This document shows positions 1 through 39,281 of a stretch of DNA of 44,120 nt, in pieces (within the stretch, counting starts at the first letter, position 1; the number at the start of each line of letters is the position of its first letter). The position numbers and the translations under genes were made by a program. Location of the stretch: sequence record DRR723986_6702. One strand, 5' to 3'. The notes beneath the pieces were generated by a model. The model made no database searches, had not been told where the DNA came from, and saw only the letters and a program-made list of their open reading frames with translations.

Positions 1-2760
1 AGACTCAGAACCTGTGATGGTCACTGGAGTGGAACTAGCTTCTTTTACAATGAAATTGGGAGTTTCAACTAAACATCCTCCAGCATTTCTTACAATTGCC
101 TGATAGGTTCCTGCAATTTCGATTTCTAAAGTTTTTCCGGTAGCTCCAGTAATCTCGGTTCCATTTTTTCTCCACTTCACTACCTCAAAAGCACCTTCAG
201 ACTTTAACGTTAGCGTTTGCTTTGTTCCCCCGCAAATGGATTCTGAACCGGTAATAGTAACCGGAGTAGTATTAGCCGCTTTAACAATGAATTCATCCGT
301 CTCAAAAAGACAAGCTCCAGCGTATCTGATAACAGCCTTGTAAGTACCAGCTCCTTCTATCTCCAAGGCTTTTCCAGTTGCACCTGAAATCTCTGTTCCA
401 TTCTTTCTCCATCTTACAACTTCAAATGGAGCTTCCGAATTCAAAGTCAGTGTTTGCTTTGTGCCACCACAAATGGATTCAGAACCTGTGATGGTTACTG
501 GACTAGAAGTAAAACTCCTTACTAATACAGTGGTATTTTTTTCTGTGACGTTTCCAGAGAAATCGACAGCTCGTAGCTCAACCGTAAGCTCTTTTCCTAC
601 ATCCTCACAGGTGACTTTGGTTTTGCTGATAGTCACCTCTTTTACAGCACAATTATCAGATATTGATTGAATAAAATCCTCTGGATTCAATTCGAGTTGA
701 CCAATTGTTAAATCAAGTTCAACTTCCAGATTGTTTGTTTGCACCTCAGGCGCTGATTTATCCTGAACAACCACTTCAATTTTATCCTCCCAAGTATTCC
801 CCTTATCGTCCTTGATTATTACCGTTACTTCTTGAGCGCCTAGGTTTTCGCATGAAAAATCTGACTTACTCAGTGTTACGGTGTAAATCGAACTTACAGG
901 CCAATTCGTGAAAACCTGCTCTGGTTTTAAGGTAGCCTTCCCTTCAGCGTTAAGCACCAGCTCTACCCTATCTTTTACAACAGGCTTAGCTTCAGTTTTC
1001 CTCAAAGGTATTTTCAGACTTACCTCGTCTTTATAAACCCGACGTTCTACCTTCTGCAGATTGTAGTTTTGATCTAATACTGGAAAAATATATACGGGTG
1101 TAAAATTGACTATAGCAAACTCCTGATCTCCCTCTACCTTTTTCTCCAAATTCACTTCTAAATGCCCGTAATGCTTTCCGCCATCAACTAAAACGGGATT
1201 AGCGCCCGAGGTATTCCATACCTCAACAGAACTCTGGTCTGCGGACCATTTTCGATAAGGATTGTAATCGAGCGTGTTAAAGGGATTACCTAACCAATCT
1301 CTCTTTTCCCCTCTCAATCCATCCCCGGCAACGCCTACATCGTAATACATAATGCCTTTGCCGTCACTATCTTCATCTACAAAGCTTCTTTCAAACAATT
1401 CATCATGTCCTGAAAAAACAGCAACTACACCATATTTTTCCAACATAGGATTCAAGATGCGCATCGGTGTTCCAACTTGGCCAATAGAAAGCTCATGATT
1501 CAACGGCACACCATGCTCGCCTGATGAAAAAGCAATGTGGTGATATTGTACAAAGATTAACTGACCATTTTCGCTGGCATCTTTCAGATTTTCTTCCAGC
1601 CAAATATATTGGTCAGATCCTGGCCCAAAACTGCTCAGATCTTTTCCTCCTGCAGCATTGTATTGTGCCAGCGTATAGTTTTCCTGAGTATCAGTGCCAG
1701 GCTCAGTGTATTGTTTTCCCGTAAGCTTAGGCTGCCCGTCAAAATCTGCGGCAGTTTGATCAGGTGTACCGTTGCTGGAATCCAGAGTCAAAATAGTTAC
1801 TGGCCCATAATCCACACGATAGTAGCTTTTTTTATGCTTTTGAAGCGGATCTTCAATTGGGGTTTCGAAATAGGTATGAAAACGGTTCCTGCCTACGACC
1901 GGAAGAAATTCACCCCTCTCATTGGTTCCGTACCCTCCGCTGATTGCTCCATAAGACTCCCAATTGCCAAGTGCAGGTATGATCGCATAGCTAGACAGGC
2001 CCTTCCCCATACTCCCTGCATTCTGTCTAAAAAATTCGTCCCAGCCAGGCTGATATCCAGCCCCTTGAACCAAATCACCCGGCATTAGGATAAAGTTCGG
2101 GTTTCGGGAATTTATGACTTTCAGGTTTTCATTATAGCCAACTTGCTCTGTCAACATGTAATTTGGAATCTCTATCCCTTGCTCAATGGTACTTCCAAAC
2201 TTTTGCTTCCAAAGTTCTGGGACAGTAGTTATGGGTCGGAATAGTGGATTTCCTGGATACCAAGCTCTGTTGGTTACTCTTCCTCTGGGTTCAGTCTCAG
2301 AATCCGCCAATGCCATAAATCTAATTTTCTCCCAATTAGACTTGGAAGCTGGCATGGTAAAAGCACCGTCATAGGCTACTCCTCCAAAAGTAACCAAATA
2401 GTTTACCGATGTTCCTGCAGGTAGGTCTATTGGTATCCTGTAGCGAAAGACCTCGTCACTTTCTATCCAACTCCCCTGCTCCAAACCTGTAAGTACTTGA
2501 CTTTTCTCCTGGGACGTATAGTAAATATTAGGGACAGGTTCGCCAGTGACTTCACCTTCATACAGAACGTTTCCTGAATCCCCAACAAGCTTAATAAAAC
2601 TGGAAGTCAATGAATTACCAAACCAAGTTAGCTGCATCTTTCCCTCTCCATAAACTTGCAAATAGGGGTAGATTCTATAAGGGTTTACTTCACTGACTTT
2701 CAGAGACATAAAAGTCAAGCAAATCAACAATCCAAAACTAAATAGCAGATGCTTTTTCAT
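1..2760 (-). CDS. Secreted metallophosphoesterase (purple-acid-phosphatase-like) with C-terminal Ig-like repeats; 3' end lies outside the window
   Basis: Absent from the ORF track because the stop is outside the window. ATG at 2760 gives MKKHLLFSFGLLICLTFMSL (signal peptide), and my manual translation stays open to position 1. Calcineurin-like motifs appear in order: FMALADSE, MPGDLVQG, ALGNWE, YHHIAFS, FSGHDE. Beta-rich Cys-containing domains and 79-aa repeats follow. Confidence 0.85.
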   Translation of the reverse strand, partial: MKKHLLFSFGLLICLTFMSLKVSEVNPYRIYPYLQVYGEGKMQLTWFGNSLTSSFIKLVGDSGNVLYEGEVTGEPVPNIYYTSQEKSQVLTGLEQGSWIESDEVFRYRIPIDLPAGTSVNYLVTFGGVAYDGAFTMPASKSNWEKIRFMALADSETEPRGRVTNRAWYPGNPLFRPITTVPELWKQKFGSTIEQGIEIPNYMLTEQVGYNENLKVINSRNPNFILMPGDLVQGAGYQPGWDEFFRQNAGSMGKGLSSYAIIPALGNWESYGAISGGYGTNERGEFLPVVGRNRFHTYFETPIEDPLQKHKKSYYRVDYGPVTILTLDSSNGTPDQTAADFDGQPKLTGKQYTEPGTDTQENYTLAQYNAAGGKDLSSFGPGSDQYIWLEENLKDASENGQLIFVQYHHIAFSSGEHGVPLNHELSIGQVGTPMRILNPMLEKYGVVAVFSGHDELFERSFVDEDSDGKGIMYYDVGVAGDGLRGEKRDWLGNPFNTLDYNPYRKWSADQSSVEVWNTSGANPVLVDGGKHYGHLEVNLEKKVEGDQEFAIVNFTPVYIFPVLDQNYNLQKVERRVYKDEVSLKIPLRKTEAKPVVKDRVELVLNAEGKATLKPEQVFTNWPVSSIYTVTLSKSDFSCENLGAQEVTVIIKDDKGNTWEDKIEVVVQDKSAPEVQTNNLEVELDLTIGQLELNPEDFIQSISDNCAVKEVTISKTKVTCEDVGKELTVELRAVDFSGNVTEKNTTVLVRSFTSSPVTITGSESICGGTKQTLTLNSEAPFEVVRWRKNGTEISGATGKALEIEGAGTYKAVIRYAGACLFETDEFIVKAANTTPVTITGSESICGGTKQTLTLKSEGAFEVVKWRKNGTEITGATGKTLEIEIAGTYQAIVRNAGGCLVETPNFIVKEASSTPVTITGSES
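2..510 (-). repeat. Intragenic tandem repeat, 237-bp (79-aa) period, two full copies plus the start of a third
   Basis: GAyTCwGAACC anchors at 2, 239 and 476. Unit: PVTITGSESICGGTKQTLTL.SE..FEVV.WRKNGTEI.GATGK.LEIE.AGTY.A..R.AG.CL.ET..FIVK, an Ig-like pattern (W..NG..I.GAT, G.Y). Confidence 0.9.
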
Positions 2761-2881
2761 GGTTAAACAATAAAAGTAAACTAAACAAAGCTAAACGATA
2801 ATTGCTTGCAATACAGGAAGTAGCACAAAATATCGCTCAGTTTGATCTATTTGAAAGAATCTAACCGCCTGAAATGTAAGG

Positions 2882-3976
2882 CTATTCCACCCTGCTTTTT
2901 AATAGAAATAACTGAACAGGATTCAAGGGATCATTACTAAAGATGTAAATATTCCGCTGATCTATTCCTTGTCTTCCTTTTGGGTCAAAAGTCACCTTGA
3001 GATATATTGATTCTCCTGGATCCAGAGTAGTCTTCGGAATCTCAAGCTTCAGACAAGTACAATTGCCTTGAATCTTCTTTATTTCCAAAGGCTCTCTTCC
3101 CTTATTGGTCAATAGAACTTCTTTTTCCTGAATTGCAGAATTTTTAATTGTCTTCAAATCGATTTCCTTAGGATCAATTACCAGTTGAGGAACTTGCTTC
3201 AAATCATCCTTAGAAAAAGGGGCATAATATTCGAAAATATCCGCCAATACACTCAAAGCAATAAATCCAGTAGAATCCTGCCAAGTAAGTGAAACCTGAT
3301 CTTCGAAATAGCCCAAATCATTTTTCATCGCTCCATTATAAGCCACCTGAAGTAACCCGCGATCATTCGGCATAATGGAGTCTGTAAGTTGCTTTACTTG
3401 TATATATTCAGGTCCGACATAGGACAGACTATCCTTGTAGAATGGAGTCTTACCAAAATTAAAGACCTCCACTTGCTTCAGTTTTGGCACATTGGTAAAG
3501 ACTTCACCGACATTGATTTTCTCCAATCGAAAGCCAAGATCACCTTTTCTTGTCCTATATGTCCCCACAGGATCACTAGCTCTTGGGATCGCATTGCCCT
3601 CAATGTAAAGCGTATCCTGCACATCTTGAAGATTCCCTTTTACTACAATCATTCTAGAAAAAAATCCAGCGCCTGAGGAAGGATCAAAAGAAACCTTTAA
3701 AATCCCAGTTTCCCCTACGACCAGGGTATCTTTAGTGTATTCTACAGTGGTGCAACCACAATCAGTCACTACGGTCTCAATGTAAAAAAGAGAATCCTGG
3801 GTATGGGTAAATTCGAATTCTGCGACCTGTGGCCCTTGCTCTTCCAAGATTGTACCCAAATCCACCTTATTGACAGCCCAGATCAATTTGGGAGTTATAG
3901 TTTCTTGAGCCTGTGTGAGTTGGGAGAAAAAACACAGAAATAAGAGGGTATAAAGGGACTTTTCTAATCTAATCAT
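2882..3976 (-). CDS. DUF1573 domain-containing protein (tandem Ig-like domains)
   Basis: Signal peptide. Two clear DUF1573-type units (VVTDCGCTTVEY..TLVVGETGILKVSFDP; IQGNCTCLKLEI.KTTLDPGESIYLKVTFDP) and a degenerate middle unit. Confidence 0.85.
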   Translation of the reverse strand: MIRLEKSLYTLLFLCFFSQLTQAQETITPKLIWAVNKVDLGTILEEQGPQVAEFEFTHTQDSLFYIETVVTDCGCTTVEYTKDTLVVGETGILKVSFDPSSGAGFFSRMIVVKGNLQDVQDTLYIEGNAIPRASDPVGTYRTRKGDLGFRLEKINVGEVFTNVPKLKQVEVFNFGKTPFYKDSLSYVGPEYIQVKQLTDSIMPNDRGLLQVAYNGAMKNDLGYFEDQVSLTWQDSTGFIALSVLADIFEYYAPFSKDDLKQVPQLVIDPKEIDLKTIKNSAIQEKEVLLTNKGREPLEIKKIQGNCTCLKLEIPKTTLDPGESIYLKVTFDPKGRQGIDQRNIYIFSNDPLNPVQLFLLKSRVE

Positions 3977-4046
3977 ACCCGCAATTAACGCATAATTTCA
4001 AACGTATTCAGGACTGTTTTACTTAATTTGCAGCAAAATCAGACCA

Positions 4047-5021
4047 ATGGCAAGAGTATTAACAGGCATTCAAAGCAGCGGAAGACCACACTTAGGAAAT
4101 ATCCTAGGCGCGATTGTCCCTGCAATTGAATTGATTAAACAGAACAAGGAGGAGTCGTACATATTTATTGCAGACTTGCATTCCCTTACCACTTCAAAGG
4201 ATGGCGAAGTTCGCAAGCAAAACACGCTTGCAGTCGCTGCAGCTTGGCTTGCCTTCGGCTTGGATATAGAAAACACGACTTTTTATCGACAGTCTAGAAG
4301 ACCTGAGGTAGCGGAACTGACTTGGTACCTGAACTGCTTCACTCCTTTCCCAATGCTTGCAAATGCGCATAGCTTCAAGGATAAGGCTGAGCGACTTTCT
4401 GATGTGAATGCGGGACTATTCACCTACCCGGTTTTGATGGCAGCTGATATTTTACTGTATTCAGCGGATTTGGTTCCTGTAGGAAAAGATCAGATGCAAC
4501 ACCTAGAAATGACCCGTGATATTGCTTCTACGTTCAATAGAATCGTGGGTGAGGATATTCTGACTATTCCAGAGGCAAGAATCGATGAAGTGGTAAAAAC
4601 CATTCCAGGCACTGACGGCCAGAAGATGAGTAAGTCTTACAATAACTTTATTGATATTTTCCTGCCGGAAAAAGCACTGAAGAAAAATGTAAACAGTATC
4701 GTGACCGACAGCAAAGAATTGGAAGAACCAAAAGATCCTGATACTGATAATGTCTTTAAGTTATATAGTTTGATCGCTTCAGAAGAGCAAACAAAGCAGA
4801 TGCGAGCGAACTACAAAGGCGGGAATTATGGCTACGGTCATGCGAAAAAAGAATTGTTACAGCTTATCCTTGATAAATATAAAAAAGAGCGGGAGCTATT
4901 TGATTTCTACATGAATCATCCCGAAGAAATCGAAATAAGATTGGCAGCAGGGGAAGAAAAGGCCAAGGCCGTTGGCGCAGAATTGTTGGATAAAGTGAGA
5001 GTGAAGCTGGGGTTTAAGTAA
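4047..5021 (+). CDS. trpS: Tryptophan--tRNA ligase
   Basis: TGIQSSGRPHLGN (HIGH-type), YPVLMAADIL, VPVGKDQ, KMSKS. Confidence 0.98.
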   Translation: MARVLTGIQSSGRPHLGNILGAIVPAIELIKQNKEESYIFIADLHSLTTSKDGEVRKQNTLAVAAAWLAFGLDIENTTFYRQSRRPEVAELTWYLNCFTPFPMLANAHSFKDKAERLSDVNAGLFTYPVLMAADILLYSADLVPVGKDQMQHLEMTRDIASTFNRIVGEDILTIPEARIDEVVKTIPGTDGQKMSKSYNNFIDIFLPEKALKKNVNSIVTDSKELEEPKDPDTDNVFKLYSLIASEEQTKQMRANYKGGNYGYGHAKKELLQLILDKYKKERELFDFYMNHPEEIEIRLAAGEEKAKAVGAELLDKVRVKLGFK

Positions 5022-5096
5022 GTTTTAGCGGAGACACGGCGGCGAGGCTATTTGCTTATCACGCAAAAGCACGAAGTTTCTGTAAACCTTTAGTTT

Positions 5097-5139
5097 GTTA
5101 TCCTGAGCGAAGTATCATCAAGAGAGAAGCCGAAGGATC
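5097..5139. repeat. REP-like element (GTTATCCTGAGCGAAG...CGAAGGATC)
   Basis: Resembles the GTCATCCTGAGC..GAAGGATC class of short extragenic palindromes; recognised by pattern only. Confidence 0.5.
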
Positions 5140-5167
5140 ATCGAAGATTTATTATCTTAATACATAC

Positions 5168-5204
5168 AAATGGCTCCTACAATCTCTGAGGGAGCCATTT
5201 TTTT
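5168..5204 (+). terminator. Intrinsic terminator downstream of trpS
   Basis: AAATGGCTCC-N13-GGAGCCATTT followed by a T tract. Confidence 0.75.
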
Positions 5205-5205
5205 A

Positions 5206-5428
5206 TACTACCGATCGTGCCTTTGGCACTCGTCAAGTAATCACTATTCTTACTTAACCCAGAATTTCATTCTGGGCTTTTACTGGCCTTGCCTTTGGCA
5301 AGGAGCATTAGAACTCAATTGAAAAGTTGTGCCAACGACACATCTAGTAAAATCCCAGAATGCAGCGCAGCGAAACTCAAGGTTTAAACCAAATCAGACT
5401 ATTTAGAGTGCCAACGGCACGATCAGTA
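5206..5428. repeat. ~220-bp imperfect palindrome built from nested REP-like units (REPIN/MITE-like)
   Basis: Left end TACTACCGATCGTGCCTTTGGCACTC is nearly the reverse complement of right end GAGTGCCAACGGCACGATCAGTA. Inner pair: CATTCTGGGCTTTTACTGG..TGCCTTTGGCA versus TGCCAACGACA..CTAGTAAAATCCCAGAATG. Confidence 0.75.
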
Positions 5429-5460
5429 TTCCTTACGATTCAAAAACATCCTACAATAAA

Positions 5461-5545
5461 AACCTTCGCGAAGGTTCTTTAGGCCTTTTATGATTTGGCA
5501 GATTAAATGAAAGAAACCTTCGAGGTCTTAAATACCTCAAAGGTT
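5461..5545. repeat. Pair of AACCTTCG...AAGGTT palindromes (REP-like)
   Basis: AACCTTCGCGAAGGTT (5461-5476, perfect palindrome) and AACCTTCGAGGTCTTAAATACCTCAAAGGTT (5515-5545). Confidence 0.7.
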
Positions 5546-5552
5546 AGTGCGT

Positions 5553-6806
5553 CTACACAAACTCCTTAAAGATCACCGAAGCATTATGTCCACCGAAGCC
5601 AAAGGTGTTACTCAAGGCAACAGACACTTTTTTCTTGATAGCAGCCTTGGTAACAATCTGAATTCCCTGAGGAATGGCAGGATCCAATGTTTCCGTATTG
5701 ATCGTTGGAGGAACAACTCCCTCATTGATTGCTTTGACACAAAAGATCGCTTCTATAGCCCCTGCCGCTCCAAGCAAGTGACCTGTCATGGACTTAGTAG
5801 CAGAGATATGTAAGTTATCATACTTCCCATCAAGCAGCGCAGATATTGCTTTGATTTCGCTTAAATCTCCTGTAGGGGTAGAAGTCGCATGCGCGTTCAG
5901 GTAATCGACATCCTGCATGGTCAAGCCTGCCTCTTCCAAAGCAAATTTCATGCATTGCAGTGCGCCAGCTCCTTCGGGATGCGTGGCTGTTAAATGGTAC
6001 GCATCAGCGGTCATTGCCGCTCCGACTACCTCTCCGTAGATTTTGGCACCACGATTTTTAGCATGCTCATATTCTTCAAGAATCAAAGCTGCAGCTCCCT
6101 CTCCCATCACAAATCCATCTCTGTCCACATCAAAAGGTCTAGAAGCAGCGGAGGGATCATCGTTGCGTGTAGAAAGCGCTTTCAACGCATTAAAACCTCC
6201 CATTGAGGCTTCTGTGATTGGCGCATCTGACCCACCGGTAATCATCACTTTAGCTTTTCCCCATTTGATATAGTTGAAAGCATCCATGATCGCACTATTC
6301 GATGAAGCACAGGCTGTCACTGCAGTGTAATTGATTCCCATCAGGCCATACTTCATGGAGATCACTCCCGAAGCCATATTCACTAGGAATTTTGGATGGA
6401 AAAATGGATTGAAACGAGGTGAGCGATCATTTGCTATAAACTCGTTCAGCTCCTTTTCAAGTGTGTTCATACCACCTTGGCTCGAACCCCAGATCACTCC
6501 TGCATCAAATGGTGAGTTCAATGTGGAAACATCCAATCCAGAATCTTCCATGGCCTCAGCGGCAACATATAAAGCGTATTGGGTAAAAAGATCAGACCGT
6601 TTAATGTCACTGCGATCAAGCCTGAGCGTAGGATCAAAATCCTTTAATTCACTAGCAAATCTGGTTTTGAACTTCTCCGGATTAAAATAAGTGATTTGAC
6701 CTGCCCCGCTTTTTCCTTCTGTGGCATTCTGCCAATTGGACTTTACATCGTTACCAAGAGCAGACAACGCTCCTAAACCTGTGATTACTACTCTCTTTGA
6801 ATTCAT
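5553..6806 (-). CDS. fabF: Beta-ketoacyl-ACP synthase II
   Basis: KRVVITGLG N-terminus; Cys-His-His triad in TACASS, NAHATST and TGHLLGAAG; SNTFGFGGHN. Confidence 0.95.
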   Translation of the reverse strand: MNSKRVVITGLGALSALGNDVKSNWQNATEGKSGAGQITYFNPEKFKTRFASELKDFDPTLRLDRSDIKRSDLFTQYALYVAAEAMEDSGLDVSTLNSPFDAGVIWGSSQGGMNTLEKELNEFIANDRSPRFNPFFHPKFLVNMASGVISMKYGLMGINYTAVTACASSNSAIMDAFNYIKWGKAKVMITGGSDAPITEASMGGFNALKALSTRNDDPSAASRPFDVDRDGFVMGEGAAALILEEYEHAKNRGAKIYGEVVGAAMTADAYHLTATHPEGAGALQCMKFALEEAGLTMQDVDYLNAHATSTPTGDLSEIKAISALLDGKYDNLHISATKSMTGHLLGAAGAIEAIFCVKAINEGVVPPTINTETLDPAIPQGIQIVTKAAIKKKVSVALSNTFGFGGHNASVIFKEFV

Positions 6807-6944
6807 CTTTTACTATATCTGAAAAAACTCCTTTTTGAATGAAAAAACCCGGCTATTGACCAGGTTCTTTACTTTATTCCTATTTTTTATCTAGACTCGT
6901 GTTTCTAAAATCTAACATTTTGATCCTTATGTCTTGATACTAAT

Positions 6945-7367
6945 CTATCTGCTTCTCCAAAGGTCCTTTAACTGTCTTCCATTAATCAGCATCACAAAGC
7001 GCGCTGGGTTAGGAATCAAAACGATTCGAACATCCTGCTTATCAAACTGCTCAGACTCAATCGGTACTCCCTGCTGACCTGAAACTTCATAGCTAATAAT
7101 GCCATTTGCATCAGGAAGAAGCGGCTTGTAAACATTTGCTATGTAAGCTGTTGGCAAAAGAATATCTGTATCAGACTTCAGCTTATCCTGAATTTTCTCA
7201 ATTTCAGTTTCAAGTCTGTCCTCATAGTTTTCGTTGAAATCATCTTCCAAGTCATGAAGCGCTTCTTCAAGATCGTCATAACTCTCATCGCTATAATCCA
7301 TAGCGGCTAATTGATTTCTTTTTTCGACTATTTCGGTAAGCTCTTTATCCAGCGTATCCCAATTCAT
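6945..7367 (-). CDS. Hypothetical acidic cytoplasmic protein (likely start ATG 7367)
   Basis: Protein-like ORF with an acidic helical N-half (YDDLEEALHDLEDDFNENY). ATG 7367 preferred over TTG 7397. Confidence 0.75.
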   Translation of the reverse strand: MNWDTLDKELTEIVEKRNQLAAMDYSDESYDDLEEALHDLEDDFNENYEDRLETEIEKIQDKLKSDTDILLPTAYIANVYKPLLPDANGIISYEVSGQQGVPIESEQFDKQDVRIVLIPNPARFVMLINGRQLKDLWRSR

Positions 7368-32185: not shown

Positions 32186-33415
32186 TTGAGTATTAAATCA
32201 TTCTTCAAAAATCTAGGGCCCGGTCCCATTATCGCCGCAGCTTTCATTGGTCCGGGAACGGTTACCGTGTGTACGCTAGCTGGTGTGAATTTTGGTTTTA
32301 CCTTGCTTTGGGCATTGGGTTTATCCATTTTCTCTACAGTGATTTTGCAGGAAATTTCAGGTAGACTAGGACTAGTTACCGGTCAGGATCTTAGCCAATT
32401 GATCCGTAATCAGCCAGGAAAACCTCTTTTTAGAATTTTCTCTTCCATCCTCGTATTGACTGCAATCGGTCTGGGAAATGCCGCTTATGAATCGGGAAAT
32501 ATATCTGGAACAAACTTAGGCCTGCAGGTTTTCTGGGACGCACCGGTTCTAAATTTTTCAAGTTTTGAAGTGCAAACCGGGAATCTCATTTTAGGTCTTG
32601 TAGCATTCATAGTATTATGGCTAGGAAGTTATAAAGCGCTGGAGCGAGTCTTGGTAGGATTAGTAATATTCATGTCCGTCGCTTTTTCCGTTACGGCCAT
32701 ACTCACAAATCCCGATTGGTCAGCTGTTTTTGCAGGATTTGTCCCAAACTGGAATGATGATAGTCTTCCTACGCTGGTTGCTTTGATCGGGACAACTGTT
32801 GTTCCCTACAACCTTTTTCTTTATGCCAGTTTAGCTAAAAACCGCTGGTCAGGATCTAATGACATTTCTTGGATGCGAAGAGATATTGTTATCTCTATTG
32901 TATTGGGCGGACTTGTTTCCATGGCTATTCTAATGGTAGGAGCTGCGAATTCAAGCAGCGAAATATCCAGCGCAATTGATGTTTCCAAAGGTATGGAAGG
33001 GGTCTTCGGTAGCTTTGCAAAGTATCTTATGGGCTTTGGATTGATGGCAGCAGGATTGACTTCCAGCATCACTGCTCCACTAGCGGCGGGATTGGTGATA
33101 TGCGGGATAATGGGCTGGAGTCAGGAAATCCGTTCAAGCTCTATGCGAGCTTCTATGGGAATAATAGTCGGATTGGGCTTACTATTTGCCTCTTTAGGAA
33201 TCAAACCTGTGCAATTAATCACACTTGCTCAATTGGCAAATGGAGTTCTTCTTCCTCTCATCAGTGGATGGATTATTTGGATTGCTTCGCAAAAAGAAAT
33301 TCTTGGCAACTTCCGAAATAAACCTGGGCACACCATCCTAGCGGGTTTAATTTGGTTGATCACTTTAGCTCTTGGTATAAAAAGTATTATGGCGGTATTG
33401 GGGGTTAGTCTTTAG
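32186..33415 (+). CDS. Nramp-related (YcsG-like) transporter
   Basis: About 11 TM helices; LGPGPIIAAAFIGPGTVT, ILQEIS.RLG.VTG, GTTVVPYNLFL. Confidence 0.82.
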   Translation: MSIKSFFKNLGPGPIIAAAFIGPGTVTVCTLAGVNFGFTLLWALGLSIFSTVILQEISGRLGLVTGQDLSQLIRNQPGKPLFRIFSSILVLTAIGLGNAAYESGNISGTNLGLQVFWDAPVLNFSSFEVQTGNLILGLVAFIVLWLGSYKALERVLVGLVIFMSVAFSVTAILTNPDWSAVFAGFVPNWNDDSLPTLVALIGTTVVPYNLFLYASLAKNRWSGSNDISWMRRDIVISIVLGGLVSMAILMVGAANSSSEISSAIDVSKGMEGVFGSFAKYLMGFGLMAAGLTSSITAPLAAGLVICGIMGWSQEIRSSSMRASMGIIVGLGLLFASLGIKPVQLITLAQLANGVLLPLISGWIIWIASQKEILGNFRNKPGHTILAGLIWLITLALGIKSIMAVLGVSL

Positions 33416-33602
33416 ATACACTCCTTCAACTTTTTCATTGCAATTCCTTATATACCTCTCATTTTATCTTCCGCATTTTCCAACCAATTAGTCGTCAACA
33501 CTATCCCAGTTTTAATACTAGGTGCATTTTCTGCCAATTTTTAATTTGGAAATGGCTCAAATCAATAATATCACTGGTTCTATTATTTCCATAGAAAATC
33601 TG

Positions 33603-33624
33603 AATACCCCAACTTCGGGATATT
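33603..33624. promoter_or_regulatory. Imperfect inverted repeat, possible operator upstream of the 33663 operon
   Basis: AATACCCC-N6-GGGATATT (8-bp arms, 1 mismatch) about 38 nt before the ATG, in an AT-rich spacer. Confidence 0.35.
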
Positions 33625-33662
33625 ATTTAACATCAATTTTTATATTCTAAACTTTTATCAAA

Positions 33663-35702
33663 ATGGGAAATCTTAATGATACTCAATTACAAAAATTACA
33701 GGCAAGTAGAAGCCTAAAAGCAAAGTTCCAGACTATGCAAGTCATGCATGTCGATAGAAAAAACCTCGCACAAGTCTTGAAAGGTAGTGAGGGAAAAAGT
33801 AGTACAGATCTAGACCTAACCTCCAAAGCCATTCTGCTAAGAAGTCAGCAAGGTGATTTTGAAGAGGCTTTTGAATTGGCATCATGGTCATCAAAAGCAA
33901 AACCAGAGTCCAGAAAAGTGGTAGTGAAGAGTTTTTTAAAAAATAAACAAGCACCACTTCTAGTTCATCAGATAGCTCGTTTGAAAAGATCCGAAGCTGG
34001 AGATATGATGAAGGATTACTTCGGAGAAGGTGGGGACATCAAAGATGTAGCAGAATGGATGAGTGCTGCAGGCAAAATCCTGAAAACTGGAGTTGTACCG
34101 GACGAAACAGATGGACTTTGGGGCTGGATCAAGGATACAGCTAGTAATGTAGTAGATGCGGTAGTGGGAGCAATAAATACTGTAGCAGATGCAATTGCTG
34201 CAGCTGGCAGAAATCTGGCAGATGCAGTCGCCAAAGTGGTCAATTGGACACAAGCAAAAATAGATGACTTTGTAGAGGCGGTACTAGCTGCAGGAAAATC
34301 TATTTCACAGTTATTATCCGAAGCGGTGAAAAAGGGAATTTCAGCGGTGAAAAAGTTTGTACAGGCAATTTTAGAAGCTGGTAAAAAGGCCTTGGACATT
34401 ATTAACTGGGCAATCAATCAAGCAACAAGTATTTTGAAAGAGGTTCTTAAAAAGCTAGAAGAACTTCTTGGATCATTCACTTCACTCCTGATTGAAATTG
34501 CAAAAATGGCGGCATCTAGCCTAAACGCAATTGTACGAGCGCTAGTTAGTGCTGGAAAAAGAGTCATAGACTTCATTTCAAGATTAAATCGATTTGCTCT
34601 TGATTTCGGTAAAAGATTGGTTCAGGAGCTGAAAAGAGTTGGGAAAACGGTTCGGGAAATAATGCAGGCAGTGATCAATCAAACGCGGTTAATCGCTAGA
34701 GTAGTCATAGAGGCACTGAAAGATTTGGGTACTACAGTGTTCAGTATGCTAAAAGAAGTGATTACTCGTACTGCTCAGCAATTGTCAGTAATTATTGGAG
34801 CAATGAAAGATTTAGCTATTTCTCTAAGCTCAATAATCAATGACATTGCAAGATTTGTGGCAGCAGAGGCAAGAAAACTCATGCAAGCATTACGAATCAT
34901 TTGGACTAGAATGAAGGAAATTCTTGAAGTCATTGCCCAAAAATCAGTATCTGTAATTCGCACGTTGATTACAGCGATTGTAGGCACAGTAAATCATTGG
35001 CGAGAAGTGTTTAAGGAAATTATCACCAATGTAAGAGATGCTTTTAGAGAAGGGTTAATCAAAGGCTTAATCGAAATTGGTAAATCTGCCGTGACCTTGA
35101 TGATCGAAGCAACCAAACTAGGAGCAAGTATTGCTGCAGTTACTTTTGCTATTTTGATGGATATTTTTGGATCACACCGGGGCCTCAATGCAAGTGAAAG
35201 AGCTGAGGCTGAAAAAGTTTTTGGGGTTTCAATTGACTTAGATCGCGTGAAATTAACCGACGCTAGCCTTGCGGCTGATTTGATTATGTGGATGAATAAA
35301 AACCGCCCATTCACCACGATGTATGTAATCAACCATAAGTCAGGTGCTACTTTATCCATGGCAACCCTAATTCATGAACTTACTCACGTATGGCAGGCAG
35401 TTACTTCGGGTGGCGTTTATATGATTGAAGCCTTGCATTCTCAGTTCTTTGGAAAAGCGTACAACCTCTCAGAAGATGACTTGAAAAAGGCTAATGGTAA
35501 GCTGCTGAACTTAGAAAGAGAGCAACAGGCAGTTTTGGTCGAGGAATTCTGGAAAGCAGAATTTGACGGGCAAAGAACCAAAATTCCAGTTGACCTTCTT
35601 CGTCCTTATGCTAAGCAAGTCCACAAATCACGATTTGTAATCAACCGATTTGCTTTAAAGGATTTGCAACTTAGCAGCAACCTTGTTTTCATAAATAAAT
35701 AA
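33663..35702 (+). CDS. Helical-repeat protein with C-terminal DUF4157/eCIS-core-like HExxH metallopeptidase domain
   Basis: No signal peptide. About 11 tandem 29-aa repeats (aa 177-496), then R.L..SE...A..VFG.SIDLDRVKL, LIHELTHVWQ (H571-H575) and EREQQA (E620). Confidence 0.8.
   Translation: MGNLNDTQLQKLQASRSLKAKFQTMQVMHVDRKNLAQVLKGSEGKSSTDLDLTSKAILLRSQQGDFEEAFELASWSSKAKPESRKVVVKSFLKNKQAPLLVHQIARLKRSEAGDMMKDYFGEGGDIKDVAEWMSAAGKILKTGVVPDETDGLWGWIKDTASNVVDAVVGAINTVADAIAAAGRNLADAVAKVVNWTQAKIDDFVEAVLAAGKSISQLLSEAVKKGISAVKKFVQAILEAGKKALDIINWAINQATSILKEVLKKLEELLGSFTSLLIEIAKMAASSLNAIVRALVSAGKRVIDFISRLNRFALDFGKRLVQELKRVGKTVREIMQAVINQTRLIARVVIEALKDLGTTVFSMLKEVITRTAQQLSVIIGAMKDLAISLSSIINDIARFVAAEARKLMQALRIIWTRMKEILEVIAQKSVSVIRTLITAIVGTVNHWREVFKEIITNVRDAFREGLIKGLIEIGKSAVTLMIEATKLGASIAAVTFAILMDIFGSHRGLNASERAEAEKVFGVSIDLDRVKLTDASLAADLIMWMNKNRPFTTMYVINHKSGATLSMATLIHELTHVWQAVTSGGVYMIEALHSQFFGKAYNLSEDDLKKANGKLLNLEREQQAVLVEEFWKAEFDGQRTKIPVDLLRPYAKQVHKSRFVINRFALKDLQLSSNLVFINK
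34191..35150 (+). repeat. Protein-level tandem repeat, 29-aa (87-nt) period, about 11 units
   Basis: Units begin AIAAAGR, AVLAAGK, AILEAGK, KLEELLG, ALVSAGK, ELKRVGK, ALKDLGT, AMKDLAI, ALRIIWT, AIVGTVN and GLIEIGK, spaced 29 aa apart (one spacing is 30). Confidence 0.8.
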
Positions 35703-35710
35703 TTTTTTAA

Positions 35711-36610
35711 GTGAATAAAGCGATTGTAATACCAGAATCATGGTCTTTACCAGCTGGATTTTTAGTAGCGAGGTTGAATAAATTTCAACCTCGCTTTTTC
35801 ACCATTTCCATTCCTGATGTTCTTTACTTAGACTCTGAGAAATTTTTAAATCGGCTATATGCGGCGGTAGACCAGCATGCCGCACATTCAACATTAGTAG
35901 TGTTGCCACATTCCTGGGCTGAGGTTAATAAAATACAAGATTGGCCACCTATACTATGTAATGAGAAATTTCGTCCTGTGGTAAATTCAATCTTTTTCGC
36001 AGATGAATGGAAGGAATTAGAGGCTACATTATTGGACTTTCTATGTTATAAAACTGAGGCATCTCCTAAAACACATTTGACTTGTCAATACCAACAGCCC
36101 TATACTAATATGCTGAATCTTTGGTCAGAAGCGGGAGCGGAAGATTTTCATCCAGGCGATTTTTACAAATCCGAGATATTATCTGCAATCTCCACTATGA
36201 CTGGTAATTGGGTTTATTGGGGCCATGGAGAGGCAAATCTACTAAGAGGTTATGGCCATTTGGGGAAAGAAGAGTTGCTCGCTCATATTCCGAAAAAACC
36301 ACTTAATGCGACACTTTGGTTTACCTGTTCTACACTAGATTATTATGGTAGTGAGAATATCGCTCTAAGTTGGTACCGCAGTGGAGCCACTAAATGTCTT
36401 TTAGCAAGTCCTAATAAAATAAATACAGAAGCGAACCAGATCCTATCAGCAGCATGGCTAGCAGCTTCCAAAGATCCACCGATCGCTAGTATTGCTGGTA
36501 TAGTTTTAAAACTCATAAAAGAGGAATCAAAAGAAATAACTGATGTAATCAGGAATTACTATCTTCTAGGCAATCCTTGGGTACTTGCAGGCATAGGAAA
36601 TCAGAAATAA
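35711..36610 (+). CDS. Stand-alone clan CD cysteine protease-like protein (CHAT/caspase/gingipain C25 fold)
   Basis: WVYWGHG (His172), TLWFTCST (Cys206), IALSWYRSGA..LLAS, C-terminal YYLLGNP; GTG start 8 nt after the upstream stop. Confidence 0.7.
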   Translation: MNKAIVIPESWSLPAGFLVARLNKFQPRFFTISIPDVLYLDSEKFLNRLYAAVDQHAAHSTLVVLPHSWAEVNKIQDWPPILCNEKFRPVVNSIFFADEWKELEATLLDFLCYKTEASPKTHLTCQYQQPYTNMLNLWSEAGAEDFHPGDFYKSEILSAISTMTGNWVYWGHGEANLLRGYGHLGKEELLAHIPKKPLNATLWFTCSTLDYYGSENIALSWYRSGATKCLLASPNKINTEANQILSAAWLAASKDPPIASIAGIVLKLIKEESKEITDVIRNYYLLGNPWVLAGIGNQK

Positions 36611-38489: not shown

Positions 38490-39281
38490 ATGAAAAAGCT
38501 ATTACTTTTCTTCGTCTGTGGGATGCTTTGGGTAAGTAGTCTCAAGGCTCAACAAACACAATATATGGTATTCGAATTTGTCAAGGTGGAAAACGATCAA
38601 CTCTTTGACTATATCGAATTTAAAGATTTAATGGAAAAAGTTTATCGCCAGGCTCTTAGCGACAAAAGGATAAAAGGCTGGGACTTCTGGTCTTTGCAAT
38701 CCGGTGGAGATCACTCAGATTTCCAATACATTATGGTCACCTATTACGATGATCCTGTGAAAATGATGAATGGACTAGATGAACATTCTATGATGGAATA
38801 TACCAGAATAGCTTATCCACATTTAAGTAATATTCAAGTAAGTAATTTGTTTCAGGAATCTCTCAGCATGCGTGATATGCCAATGAGGCTCTACATGAGA
38901 GAAATAGCAAAGACAAACGATAATTTCCAGATGAAACCCGGCGTCTTAGCCTCTTTTGATTTGATGAAAGCAAAGGAAGGTAACTTCGAGACGTATGAGG
39001 TAGCAGAATCAGAGATTTTCAAGCCTATACATCAGAAATTTGTAGAGCAGGGTTTAATGGGGCATTGGAGTTTACTCAGGACCGCACTCCCGCTAGGGTC
39101 AGAAGCTAAATCAACTCACTTGACAATGAATGTATACAAAGATTATATGCAGTTTTTTAATGCTCAATCCTATGAGGATATGACTCAAACAGAAGAACAA
39201 AGAATAGCTGTAAATGAAGGGTTAAATTCTAGAGATCAGAAGTGGGTTTATCTAGCAACATTAGAAAACGTAGTTCGATAG
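38490..39281 (+). CDS. Exported hypothetical protein with two internal repeats
   Basis: Signal peptide ending LKA-Q; the two halves share a F.(F/L)(V/M)K......Y.......W.......(Y/H)....Y.D pattern. Confidence 0.75.
   Translation: MKKLLLFFVCGMLWVSSLKAQQTQYMVFEFVKVENDQLFDYIEFKDLMEKVYRQALSDKRIKGWDFWSLQSGGDHSDFQYIMVTYYDDPVKMMNGLDEHSMMEYTRIAYPHLSNIQVSNLFQESLSMRDMPMRLYMREIAKTNDNFQMKPGVLASFDLMKAKEGNFETYEVAESEIFKPIHQKFVEQGLMGHWSLLRTALPLGSEAKSTHLTMNVYKDYMQFFNAQSYEDMTQTEEQRIAVNEGLNSRDQKWVYLATLENVVR

Follow-up and report, generated by a model that had tools for sequence, protein, structure and literature searches.

The window analysed here is a stretch of 44,120 nucleotides (nt) from sequence record DRR723986_6702 that originates from an Algoriphagus genome. 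At positions 33663 to 36610 it carries two adjacent genes, a helical-repeat metallopeptidase (gene 1) and a small gingipain-like cysteine protease (gene 2), whose closest homologs bear Algoriphagus names; the nearest genome used for comparison is G001. The first-pass annotation, made from the letters of the window, had proposed at this position a new protease-activated effector pair. We find that the two genes form an obligate pair with a patchy, mobile distribution, and that both encoded enzymes look catalytically active. The features of the pair are given below with their positions in the window; residue numbers are in amino acids (aa), and model confidence is the predicted local distance difference test (pLDDT) score of AlphaFold2 (AF2) models.

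33663-35702, + strand: gene 1, solenoid-metallopeptidase protein (679 aa, ATG start, from the open reading frame (ORF) list)
33663..34088, + strand: N-terminal all-helical domain of gene 1 (aa 1-142), of no known family (helices H6-H142, pLDDT ~86-95)
34089..34121, + strand: hinge loop of gene 1 (aa 143-153) with D147-E-T-D150-G151 (non-helical, pLDDT ~68)
34164..34859, + strand: eight clear 29-aa two-helix repeats forming an alpha-solenoid (aa 168-399; from lag-29 autocorrelation and the model)
34860..35168, + strand: about three degenerate repeats, modelled with low confidence as three long helices (aa 400-502; H388-424, H429-463, H465-502; pLDDT 51-70)
35169..35627, + strand: C-terminal zinc-metallopeptidase domain of VgrG2b C-ter/Tpe1 type, DUF4157-related (aa 503-655; from the family profile against PDB 6h56)
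35373..35387, + strand: zinc-binding/catalytic motif H571-E572-L-T-H575 (invariant in 55 sequences)
35711-36610, + strand: gene 2, stand-alone gingipain-like (C25, clan CD) cysteine protease (299 aa, GTG start, from the ORF list)
36224..36226, + strand: codon of the catalytic His172 in Y-W-G-H-G (H in 66 and the preceding G in 67 of 68 aligned stretches)
36326..36328, + strand: codon of the catalytic Cys206 in W-F-T-C-S-T-L-D, 34 residues past His172 (C in 66 of 68 aligned stretches)

The ORF list confirms the two co-oriented genes as first annotated, with 8 nt between the stop codon of gene 1 and the start codon of gene 2; in many relatives the two genes overlap. By inspection, neither the N-terminus of gene 1 (MGNLNDTQLQKLQ) nor that of gene 2 (MNKAIVIPESW) contains a hydrophobic signal-like stretch, in agreement with the earlier statement that both lack a signal peptide, and residues 1-25 of gene 2 form a strand and a helix inside the modelled fold (pLDDT 94-96). 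Neither protein of the window receives an above-threshold assignment in Pfam, NCBIfam, or PADLOC.

Gene 1 has 48 homologs in the protein database and 317 in species genomes. A profile of this family matches the effector domain of Pseudomonas aeruginosa VgrG2b (6h56_A; E 1.1e-12, 50.5 bits) over about 143 positions (profile 498-640), and the alignment takes in the G-x-x-R-x-L...E...V-F-G stretch, the HExxHxWQ motif, and a downstream E-Q-Q motif. In the AF2 model, computed from 55 sequences (mean pLDDT 80.1), an alpha/beta domain follows the long helices at residues 504-655, and H571, E572, H575, Q578, and E620 are invariant in these 55 sequences. According to the available part of PMC6899460, members of the VgrG2b family are zinc metallopeptidases that are often annotated as DUF4157 and have no known substrate. 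The direct Pfam evidence for DUF4157 in gene 1 itself is weak: PF13699 (DUF4157/eCIS_core) does not match the window protein, and two relatives (P0067, E 0.068; P0075, E 0.033) stay below the cut-off. An hhalign comparison of the gene 1 family with the true DUF4157 stretch of G001 yields a probability of 28% (E 6e-4) with the HELTH..Q motif aligned, and one UniRef record labels a gene 1 homolog as DUF4157. The HExxH-containing, DUF4157-like domain of the first-pass annotation is hence best described as DUF4157-related and of the VgrG2b/Tpe1 toxin type, as the profile match to 6h56 suggests.

The region ahead of this domain is helical throughout. A 29-aa period is pronounced at residues 155-390 (BLOSUM62 lag-29 autocorrelation 0.76 vs. 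-0.63 +/- 0.14 in 500 shuffles) and weaker at residues 390-503 (-0.11 vs. -0.72 +/- 0.22 in shuffles), and helices of 13 and 8 residues alternate in the modelled solenoid (residues 163-383, pLDDT ~85-94), so that the "about 11" repeats counted earlier resolve into eight clear and about three degenerate ones. No DNA-level tandem repeat was found beneath the protein repeats. A Foldseek search with the whole gene 1 model returned only generic armadillo-like or designed helical repeats (TM-score, the template modelling score, <= 0.2) and was uninformative for the N- and C-domains. In a structure atlas, the N-domain resembles nothing beyond TPR-like folds and members of its own family, one of which, a protein of 972 aa, is the sole informative look-alike above TM 0.5. 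Phage tape measure proteins (6v8i, E 2.8e-7; 9d93, E 1.6), ZorA tails, phasins, and designed helical repeats all match the helical region alike, and we treat these matches as compositional, while noting that long-form relatives pass the Pfam family Phasin_2. Two identities considered for gene 1 were rejected: a phage tape measure protein, for which a phage or prophage context is missing and tail genes are absent from the window neighbourhood, and ZorA, of which just the helical tail of the profiles is matched (NCBIfam 21 bits vs. a cut-off of 500). Relatives of gene 1 keep a fixed order of N-domain, a variable number of repeats, and the same C-domain, with lengths from 580 to about 1100 aa, and some have K/R/P-rich disordered N-termini. 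A polymorphic toxin with a constant N-terminal part and swapped C-terminal toxins was likewise rejected for the sequences seen: in four of four variants inspected, some shorter and some longer, the C-terminal domain is again this metallopeptidase. Within gene 1, the opposite strand has ORFs of 97-133 aa (33960-34417 and 34994-35359, - strand), with similar antisense ORFs in 61-69 related loci; these are most likely not genes but a by-product of the Ala/Leu/Lys-rich repeat coding sequence.

The fold of gene 2 is modelled with high confidence (25 homologs; pLDDT 90.7, predicted TM-score 0.91). The gingipain RgpB is the best match in a Foldseek search of the PDB (E 1.8e-11, TM 0.69), ahead of Kgp, SAVED-CHAT, Craspase TPR-CHAT, and separase. 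An independent all-against-representatives structure alignment gives the same picture, with RgpB at Z 22.8 (295 of 299 residues, root-mean-square deviation 3.9) and Kgp at Z 21.3, and SAVED-CHAT (Z 14.8, aligned to residues 114-299 only), the separases (~14), and legumain, metacaspases, glycosylphosphatidylinositol (GPI) transamidase, and caspases (9-13) as weaker relatives. With the values for RgpB and Kgp well above those of the other clan CD classes, gene 2 is predicted to be a complete two-subdomain gingipain catalytic domain and nothing besides, at a sequence identity to the gingipains of 12-14%. In the model, strands E166-171 and E200-205 precede H172 and C206. G171-H172 (Y-W-G-H172-G) and C206 (W-F-T-C206) are invariant in the 25 close homologs, and G171 (67), H172 (66), and C206 (66) are the top-conserved positions of the wide family (68 aligned stretches). 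The caspase-hemoglobinase fold and the His-Gly/Cys dyad of the first-pass annotation therefore stand; within clan CD, gene 2 is closest to the gingipains (family C25) and not to the CHAT or caspase-like proteases cited there for comparison.

Family profiles detect gene 2 unevenly. Peptidase_C25 (PF01364) does not match the window protein at E <= 1 and also misses the ortholog in G001, though it finds two canonical C25 genes there, and 27 of 46 members of the gene 2 family match it at E <= 0.001 (in Lacinutrix, locus L063, with 42.1 bits at a cut-off of 23) and match no other family. Pfam CHAT (PF12770) matches neither the window protein nor any of the 46 members; two UniRef records title gene 2 homologs "CHAT domain-containing protein". 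Sequence and profile searches of the PDB with gene 2 gave no credible match, and a match to glycoside hydrolase family GH26 (E 0.006) was judged to be due to chance. Among 1.84 billion cluster representatives, gene 2 has 243 relatives at E <= 1e-30, 410 at E <= 1e-10, and 2435 at E <= 0.001. The best 150 of these 2435 are nearly uniform in size (144 of 184-350 aa, six of 357-434 aa), suggesting that the family consists mostly of stand-alone catalytic domains that need a partner for specificity; fused sensor domains appear to be rare at most among these best 150.

The two genes are an obligate pair. From a one-genome-per-species scan with 317 gene 1 relatives, 80 loci were kept. They span more than a dozen phyla, among them Bacteroidota, Pseudomonadota, Myxococcota, Acidobacteriota, Actinomycetota, Chloroflexota, Cyanobacteriota, Verrucomicrobiota, Nitrospirota, Nitrospinota, Gemmatimonadota, Planctomycetota, and Desulfobacterota. 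With an iterated gene 2 profile, 66 of the 80 loci prove to have a gene 2 relative downstream of gene 1 in the same orientation, immediately after it in 65 and at a distance of 3.5 kb in L074. The 14 loci without such a relative comprise two without downstream sequence, three with short C-domain-only proteins, one (L018) with a different, Pfam-confirmed C25 protease downstream of gene 1 (49.3 bits), and eight with other or unassigned genes. As hhalign aligns the gene 2 family with the L018 protein at a probability of just 4.6%, these are two separate C25 lineages. In the reverse direction, gene 1 is found upstream in 11 of 11 metagenome loci retrieved with gene 2, a test that used the close gene 2 alignment and covers the close subfamily only. 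Co-occurrence, on which the first-pass annotation had made its proposal depend, is thus found from both sides. Some pairs are decaying, with gene 1 split by a frameshift in L086 (2940-4989) or interrupted by ~1.4 kb in L090 (1419-4979), and gene 2 fragmentary in L096 (2867-4362). The metallopeptidase domain evolves slowest and gene 2 fastest (in L003, identities are 79% for the N-domain, 77% for the solenoid, 92.5% for the C-domain, and 46.7% for gene 2). Judged from the alignments, both enzymes look catalytically active, with their catalytic residues under purifying selection.

A possible site for one protease to act on the other is the hinge between the N-domain and the solenoid of gene 1 (residues 141-155: KTGVVPDETDGLWGW). 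D150 is kept in 54 of 76 relatives, position 151 is Gly in 46, Ala in 9, and Ser in 6 of them, and the linkers of 65 contain a D with G, S, or A right after it, in a loop around D150-G151 that varies in length and sequence. The DETD|G linker singled out earlier is accordingly conserved in its Asp-Gly. R506, before the metallopeptidase domain, was rejected as a cleavage site because the same Arg aligns inside the VgrG2b domain itself. Acylation of an N-terminal glycine after a D|G cut was rejected as a general model because the subfamily linked to acyl carrier protein (ACP) and ketosynthase (KS) genes has D-[SAE]-A-V, not D-G.

The pair is patchily distributed. In a sample of 401 Bacteroidota genomes (>= 90% complete), the gene 1 profile matches eight genomes at E <= 1e-10 and two over the full length, and the pair occurs in one of five sampled Algoriphagus genomes. 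The Algoriphagus loci show at least three flank contexts, to which the pair alone is common. Patchy presence and changing flanks are typical of accessory conflict genes. No record in the phage collection (tblastn, 50,697 records) or in the plasmid collection matches the pair. The Nramp and aminotransferase genes that flank the pair in the window lie apart in four Algoriphagus genomes without it, and since they are not adjacent there, a clean insertion boundary cannot be drawn.

From the conserved catalytic residues, the pairing, the mobile distribution, and the lack of a secretion signal, an immunity gene, or a sensor, we infer that gene 2 acts on gene 1. The pair would be a self-contained, horizontally mobile operon whose two proteases cooperate within the cell that makes them. 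In gene 1, on this view a latent effector, an alpha-solenoid of 29-aa repeats and a helical N-domain would tether a zinc metallopeptidase of the Tpe1/VgrG2b type; gene 2 would be a minimal cytoplasmic gingipain-family cysteine protease without prodomain, sensor domain, or secretion signal. Gene 2 would cut gene 1, most plausibly at the Thr-Asp-Gly hinge between N-domain and solenoid; the cut would release or unmask the metallopeptidase, which might then cleave a conserved cellular target, and the resulting two-protease cascade may be an effector of conflict or cell death. Tentatively, and well aware that it may prove wrong, we lean towards this reading: an intracellular module of two proteases, with the cysteine protease processing the metallopeptidase protein, likely at the hinge, and so unmasking it.

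Several observations weigh against it. Cleavage by gingipains follows Arg or Lys and not Asp, and as gene 2 is nearest to gingipains and not to CHAT proteases or caspases, Asp specificity at DETD|G is not to be assumed. The conserved Asp-Gly of the hinge could also be a structural turn and not a cleavage site, and the ACP/KS-linked subfamily has D-[SAE]-A-V-V-E in its place. In three of the 11 metagenome loci, one of the two genes is frameshifted, interrupted, or fragmentary, and the fast divergence of gene 2 is not obviously expected of a tightly co-adapted pair of enzyme and substrate. A conflict role also receives no help from the surroundings. In PADLOC-DB 2.0.0, gene 2 has no match and gene 1 matches just the helical tail of ZorA (E 1.6e-6, profile 337-580 of 590), without the MotA-like part. 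A neighbour scan covered the 98 ORFs nearest to the pair, from 27 of 57 loci prepared. Of 63 PADLOC families matched there, the 25 listed match a single ORF each; most of these 25 are protein-kinase-type models such as PD-T4-6, which may stem from one ORF. The only recurring Pfam families are LGFP (5), ketoacyl synthase (3), and the type IX secretion system (T9SS) sorting domain Por_Secre_tail (3). By these PADLOC and Pfam counts, the pair is not located in defence islands; of what the first-pass annotation had suggested looking for, neither a defence-gene neighbourhood among these 98 ORFs nor a PADLOC family for the pair itself was found. Finally, the characterised relatives of the metallopeptidase (VgrG2b, Tpe1) kill from the periplasm of the target cell after delivery by a type VI secretion system (T6SS), as described in the available part of PMC6899460, a mode of action at odds with an intracellular role.

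That delivery route leads to an alternative that we consider rather unlikely, namely that gene 1 is a tape-measure-like cargo effector with a DUF4157-type domain for a T6SS or an extracellular contractile injection system (eCIS) encoded elsewhere, with gene 2 as its maturation or loading protease. The homology of the C-domain to the VgrG2b T6SS toxin domain, from a family often annotated as DUF4157 (available part of PMC6899460), fits this explanation, as does the match of the helical region to the tape measure protein 6v8i. Like gene 1, described eCIS cargo (AlgoCIS Cgo1/Cgo2; Tme, Sle1/Sle2) combines an HExxH domain related to DUF4157 with long helical stretches that resemble tape measure proteins, and DUF4157-associated tape-measure-like effectors of contractile injection systems (CIS) are reported in the accessible part of PMC13277306. 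However, such cargo has a disordered N-terminus, then DUF4157, then the toxin, whereas gene 1 shows the reverse order, with a folded N-domain and the protease last, and is usually unlinked to CIS genes; the K/R/P-rich disordered N-termini of some relatives do resemble the eCIS cargo loading signals presented in the accessible part of preprint 10.64898/2026.05.27.728243. As described in the available parts of these two sources (PMC13277306 and the preprint), eCIS cargo comes without a partner cysteine protease. The absence of matching phage records also speaks against cargo.

The genomes give evidence both for and against this cargo role. G001 carries an AlgoCIS-like eCIS with two sheath and two tube genes (contig C5, 85134-109736) and an ORF of 1318 aa that matches DUF4157 strongly (E 1.6e-31), but its pair is located on a different contig (C1). 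A CIS tube gene (PF06841) is present in 25 of 50 genomes with the pair, chosen by us from the 80 (the 30 left out include near-duplicates and short contigs), compared to 84 of the 401 sampled Bacteroidota; as this comparison mixes phyla and incomplete metagenome-assembled genomes (MAGs), the enrichment (50% vs. 21%) is merely suggestive. Where a tube gene is present (25 genomes), no more than 10 kb separates the pair from CIS genes in two, the distance is 766 kb on the same contig in one, and pair and tube gene are on different contigs in 22. In one of the two (L047, a Desulfocapsaceae MAG, 308-6977), the pair divergently adjoins, at ~800 bp, genes for Pvc16_N, a sheath, two gp19-type tube proteins, and CIS_tube; in the other (L031), a tube gene lies 7 kb downstream. 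Both the CIS tube gene and TssC are absent from three of seven isolate genomes with the pair (G004, G005, G046), so a contractile injection system is not required for the pair. TssC (PF05943) occurs in one of eight genomes with the pair, and gene 1 carries no VgrG or PAAR part. Of the eCIS link drawn in the first-pass annotation, the DUF4157 relationship of the C-domain remains, whereas genomic proximity proves exceptional, at two of 25 genomes. Two other genomes of Bacteroidota (G097:C21:525912-542501 and G393:C25:34469-54124) have ORFs of 690-752 aa with the C-domain alone at 16-19 kb from CIS tube genes, and the C-domain thus does occur in eCIS clusters, in another architecture.

A further possibility, to which we assign a low probability, is an action of the pair at a lipid or membrane surface, with gene 1 as an amphipathic repeat protein resembling phasins or apolipoproteins. 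Gene 2, in a transpeptidase action like that of the C25-family sortase PorU or the clan CD GPI transamidase (GPI8), would cut gene 1 or another protein and possibly join it to an acyl or polyketide product of neighbouring ACP and KS genes. A ketosynthase gene adjoins the pair in 16 of the 80 loci, all of the long form, from eight phyla (Bacteroidota, Actinomycetota, Chloroflexota, Nitrospirota, Acidobacteriota, Myxococcota, Verrucomicrobiota, and Pseudomonadota), accompanied by an ACP gene in 10 and a second KS-like gene in 10. In Lacinutrix gracilariae (L063:4126-13415), gene 1, gene 2, ACP, KS, and a KS-like gene form an overlapping same-strand array, upstream of which lie genes for a cytidylyltransferase, a haloacid dehalogenase-type (HAD) hydrolase, an iron-containing alcohol dehydrogenase (Fe-ADH), and a PlsC-type acyltransferase; a same-strand array of this kind is also seen in L031 (11604-14809), with genes for a short-chain dehydrogenase/ketoreductase (SDR/KR), Ketoacyl-synt_2, KS, and ACP. 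Such genes are absent beside the pair in the Algoriphagus window and its 12 closest loci, which limits the link to one subfamily. Long-form gene 1 passes Pfam Phasin_2 (52.9 bits in L063, cut-off 24.9), and the window protein weakly matches ApoLp-III, perilipin, phasin, and Mce4_CUP1, but these phasin and apolipoprotein matches may reflect helical composition alone, as designed helical repeats score equally. The structural relatives of gene 2 do include legumain-type ligases (Z 12.6), GPI transamidase (Z 11.5), and PorU (Z 8.4). Neither a membrane anchor nor an acceptor motif was identified, and a lipid-directed role leaves the invariant HExxH domain without explanation. The operon link to ACP and ketosynthase in this one subfamily may still point to a connection between protein and lipid. 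In 12 loci, long-form gene 1 is directly preceded on the same strand by a gene for an LGFP-repeat protein of ~550-680 aa (e.g. L026:5693-7744, without an obvious signal peptide, and L031:5932-7596, Pfam E 1.3e-63).

It is very unlikely that the genes are a toxin-immunity pair, with gene 1 as a Tpe-type antibacterial toxin neutralised by the product of the downstream gene 2. In the VgrG2b/Tpe1 family, the gene directly downstream encodes a small periplasmic immunity protein (PMC6899460, available part), and the far quicker evolution of gene 2 than of gene 1 is a pattern often met in immunity genes. Yet gene 2 is a 299-aa cytoplasmic enzyme fold, unlike the small, periplasmic Tpi proteins, and its best-conserved residues are the catalytic G-H-G and C, which argues for catalysis over mere binding. 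Furthermore, immunity proteins are typically diverse, whereas one family lies downstream in 66 of 80 loci and another C25 protease in L018. That the two genes are functionally unrelated neighbours is hardly conceivable: they occur together in 66 of 80 and in 11 of 11 loci, in different phyla and between varying flanks, which contradicts it. The remaining probability belongs to explanations not yet conceived.

The intracellular two-protease module can also be put in a bolder form, as a widespread, previously undescribed executioner switch in which a minimal cytoplasmic gingipain-type cysteine protease licenses a solenoid-tethered metallopeptidase of Tpe/VgrG2b type by a cut at the conserved Thr-Asp-Gly hinge, inside the producer, independently of any injection machine and, in one subfamily, wired to an operon with ACP and ketosynthase. 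In all its parts together this is unlikely, but if true, it would give prokaryotes a counterpart of initiator-to-executioner protease cascades.

Both domains come from known families; new here are their fixed pairing, the solenoid architecture, and the cytoplasmic minimal gingipain. Full-text literature searches found no description of this pairing, consistent with the first-pass annotation, which did not recognise it from a described system; supplementary homolog lists (PMC6899460, eCIS surveys) might include the family. The gingipains RgpB and Kgp of Porphyromonas gingivalis (MEROPS C25, clan CD) have, like gene 2, the whole two-subdomain catalytic domain with His then Cys, but they also have a signal peptide, a prodomain, an Ig-like domain, and a T9SS C-terminal domain, all of which are missing in gene 2, a presumably cytoplasmic catalytic domain of 299 aa. 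Gene 1 is homologous to VgrG2b C-ter/Tpe1 in its C-domain, with the HExxH catalytic motif in common, and differs in having no VgrG or PAAR fusion, no T6SS locus, and no small periplasmic immunity gene after it. The 500 aa of N-domain and solenoid ahead of the protease are not seen in the VgrG2b/Tpe1 members described in the available part of PMC6899460.

Clan CD proteases encoded together with a presumed substrate are also found in TPR-CHAT/Csx29-Csx30, SAVED-CHAT, and separase-securin, which are structural relatives of gene 2 (Z 12-15) and would share with the pair the logic of a protease that licenses an effector. The protease-activated bacterial gasdermins, likewise a clan CD protease with an effector, offer a further comparison. 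Gene 2 differs from these CHAT and caspase-like pairs in lacking a CRISPR, CBASS, TPR, or SAVED sensor and a Pfam CHAT match, and in a fold nearer to the gingipains, and its partner is a metallopeptidase and not a gasdermin or anti-sigma module.

Several bacterial immune and cell-death systems discovered in recent years are based on a clan CD protease that licenses an effector, and the DUF4157-related VgrG2b/Tpe1 metallopeptidases are widespread toxins; the pair joins the two in a fixed cassette that ranges from Bacteroidota to Actinomycetota. It also indicates that the gingipain family, known for secreted virulence proteases and for the T9SS sortase, has minimal cytoplasmic members. As a small cassette that can be expressed as a unit, the pair offers a tractable route to the target of this metallopeptidase family and to the means by which it is kept latent.

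The surroundings of the pair are those expected from the first-pass annotation, which had described unrelated housekeeping genes. By Pfam, the upstream neighbours encode RmuC, an alpha/beta hydrolase, and Nramp, and the downstream ones a GNAT protein, a class I/II aminotransferase, a 263-aa protein, and a major facilitator superfamily (MFS) transporter. The GC content at the locus is unremarkable. Between Nramp and gene 1 lies the presumed promoter region of the two-gene operon:

33416..33662, no strand: upstream intergenic region (247 bp, from the end of the Nramp ORF at 33415 to the start of gene 1)

A sigma-70 promoter scan of these 247 bp scored no better than shuffles, so that the promoter of the gene pair is not located by it. 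The 263-aa downstream protein (38490-39281, + strand) belongs to no Pfam family and begins with MKKLLLFFVCGMLWVSSLKA, a signal-peptide-like N-terminus.

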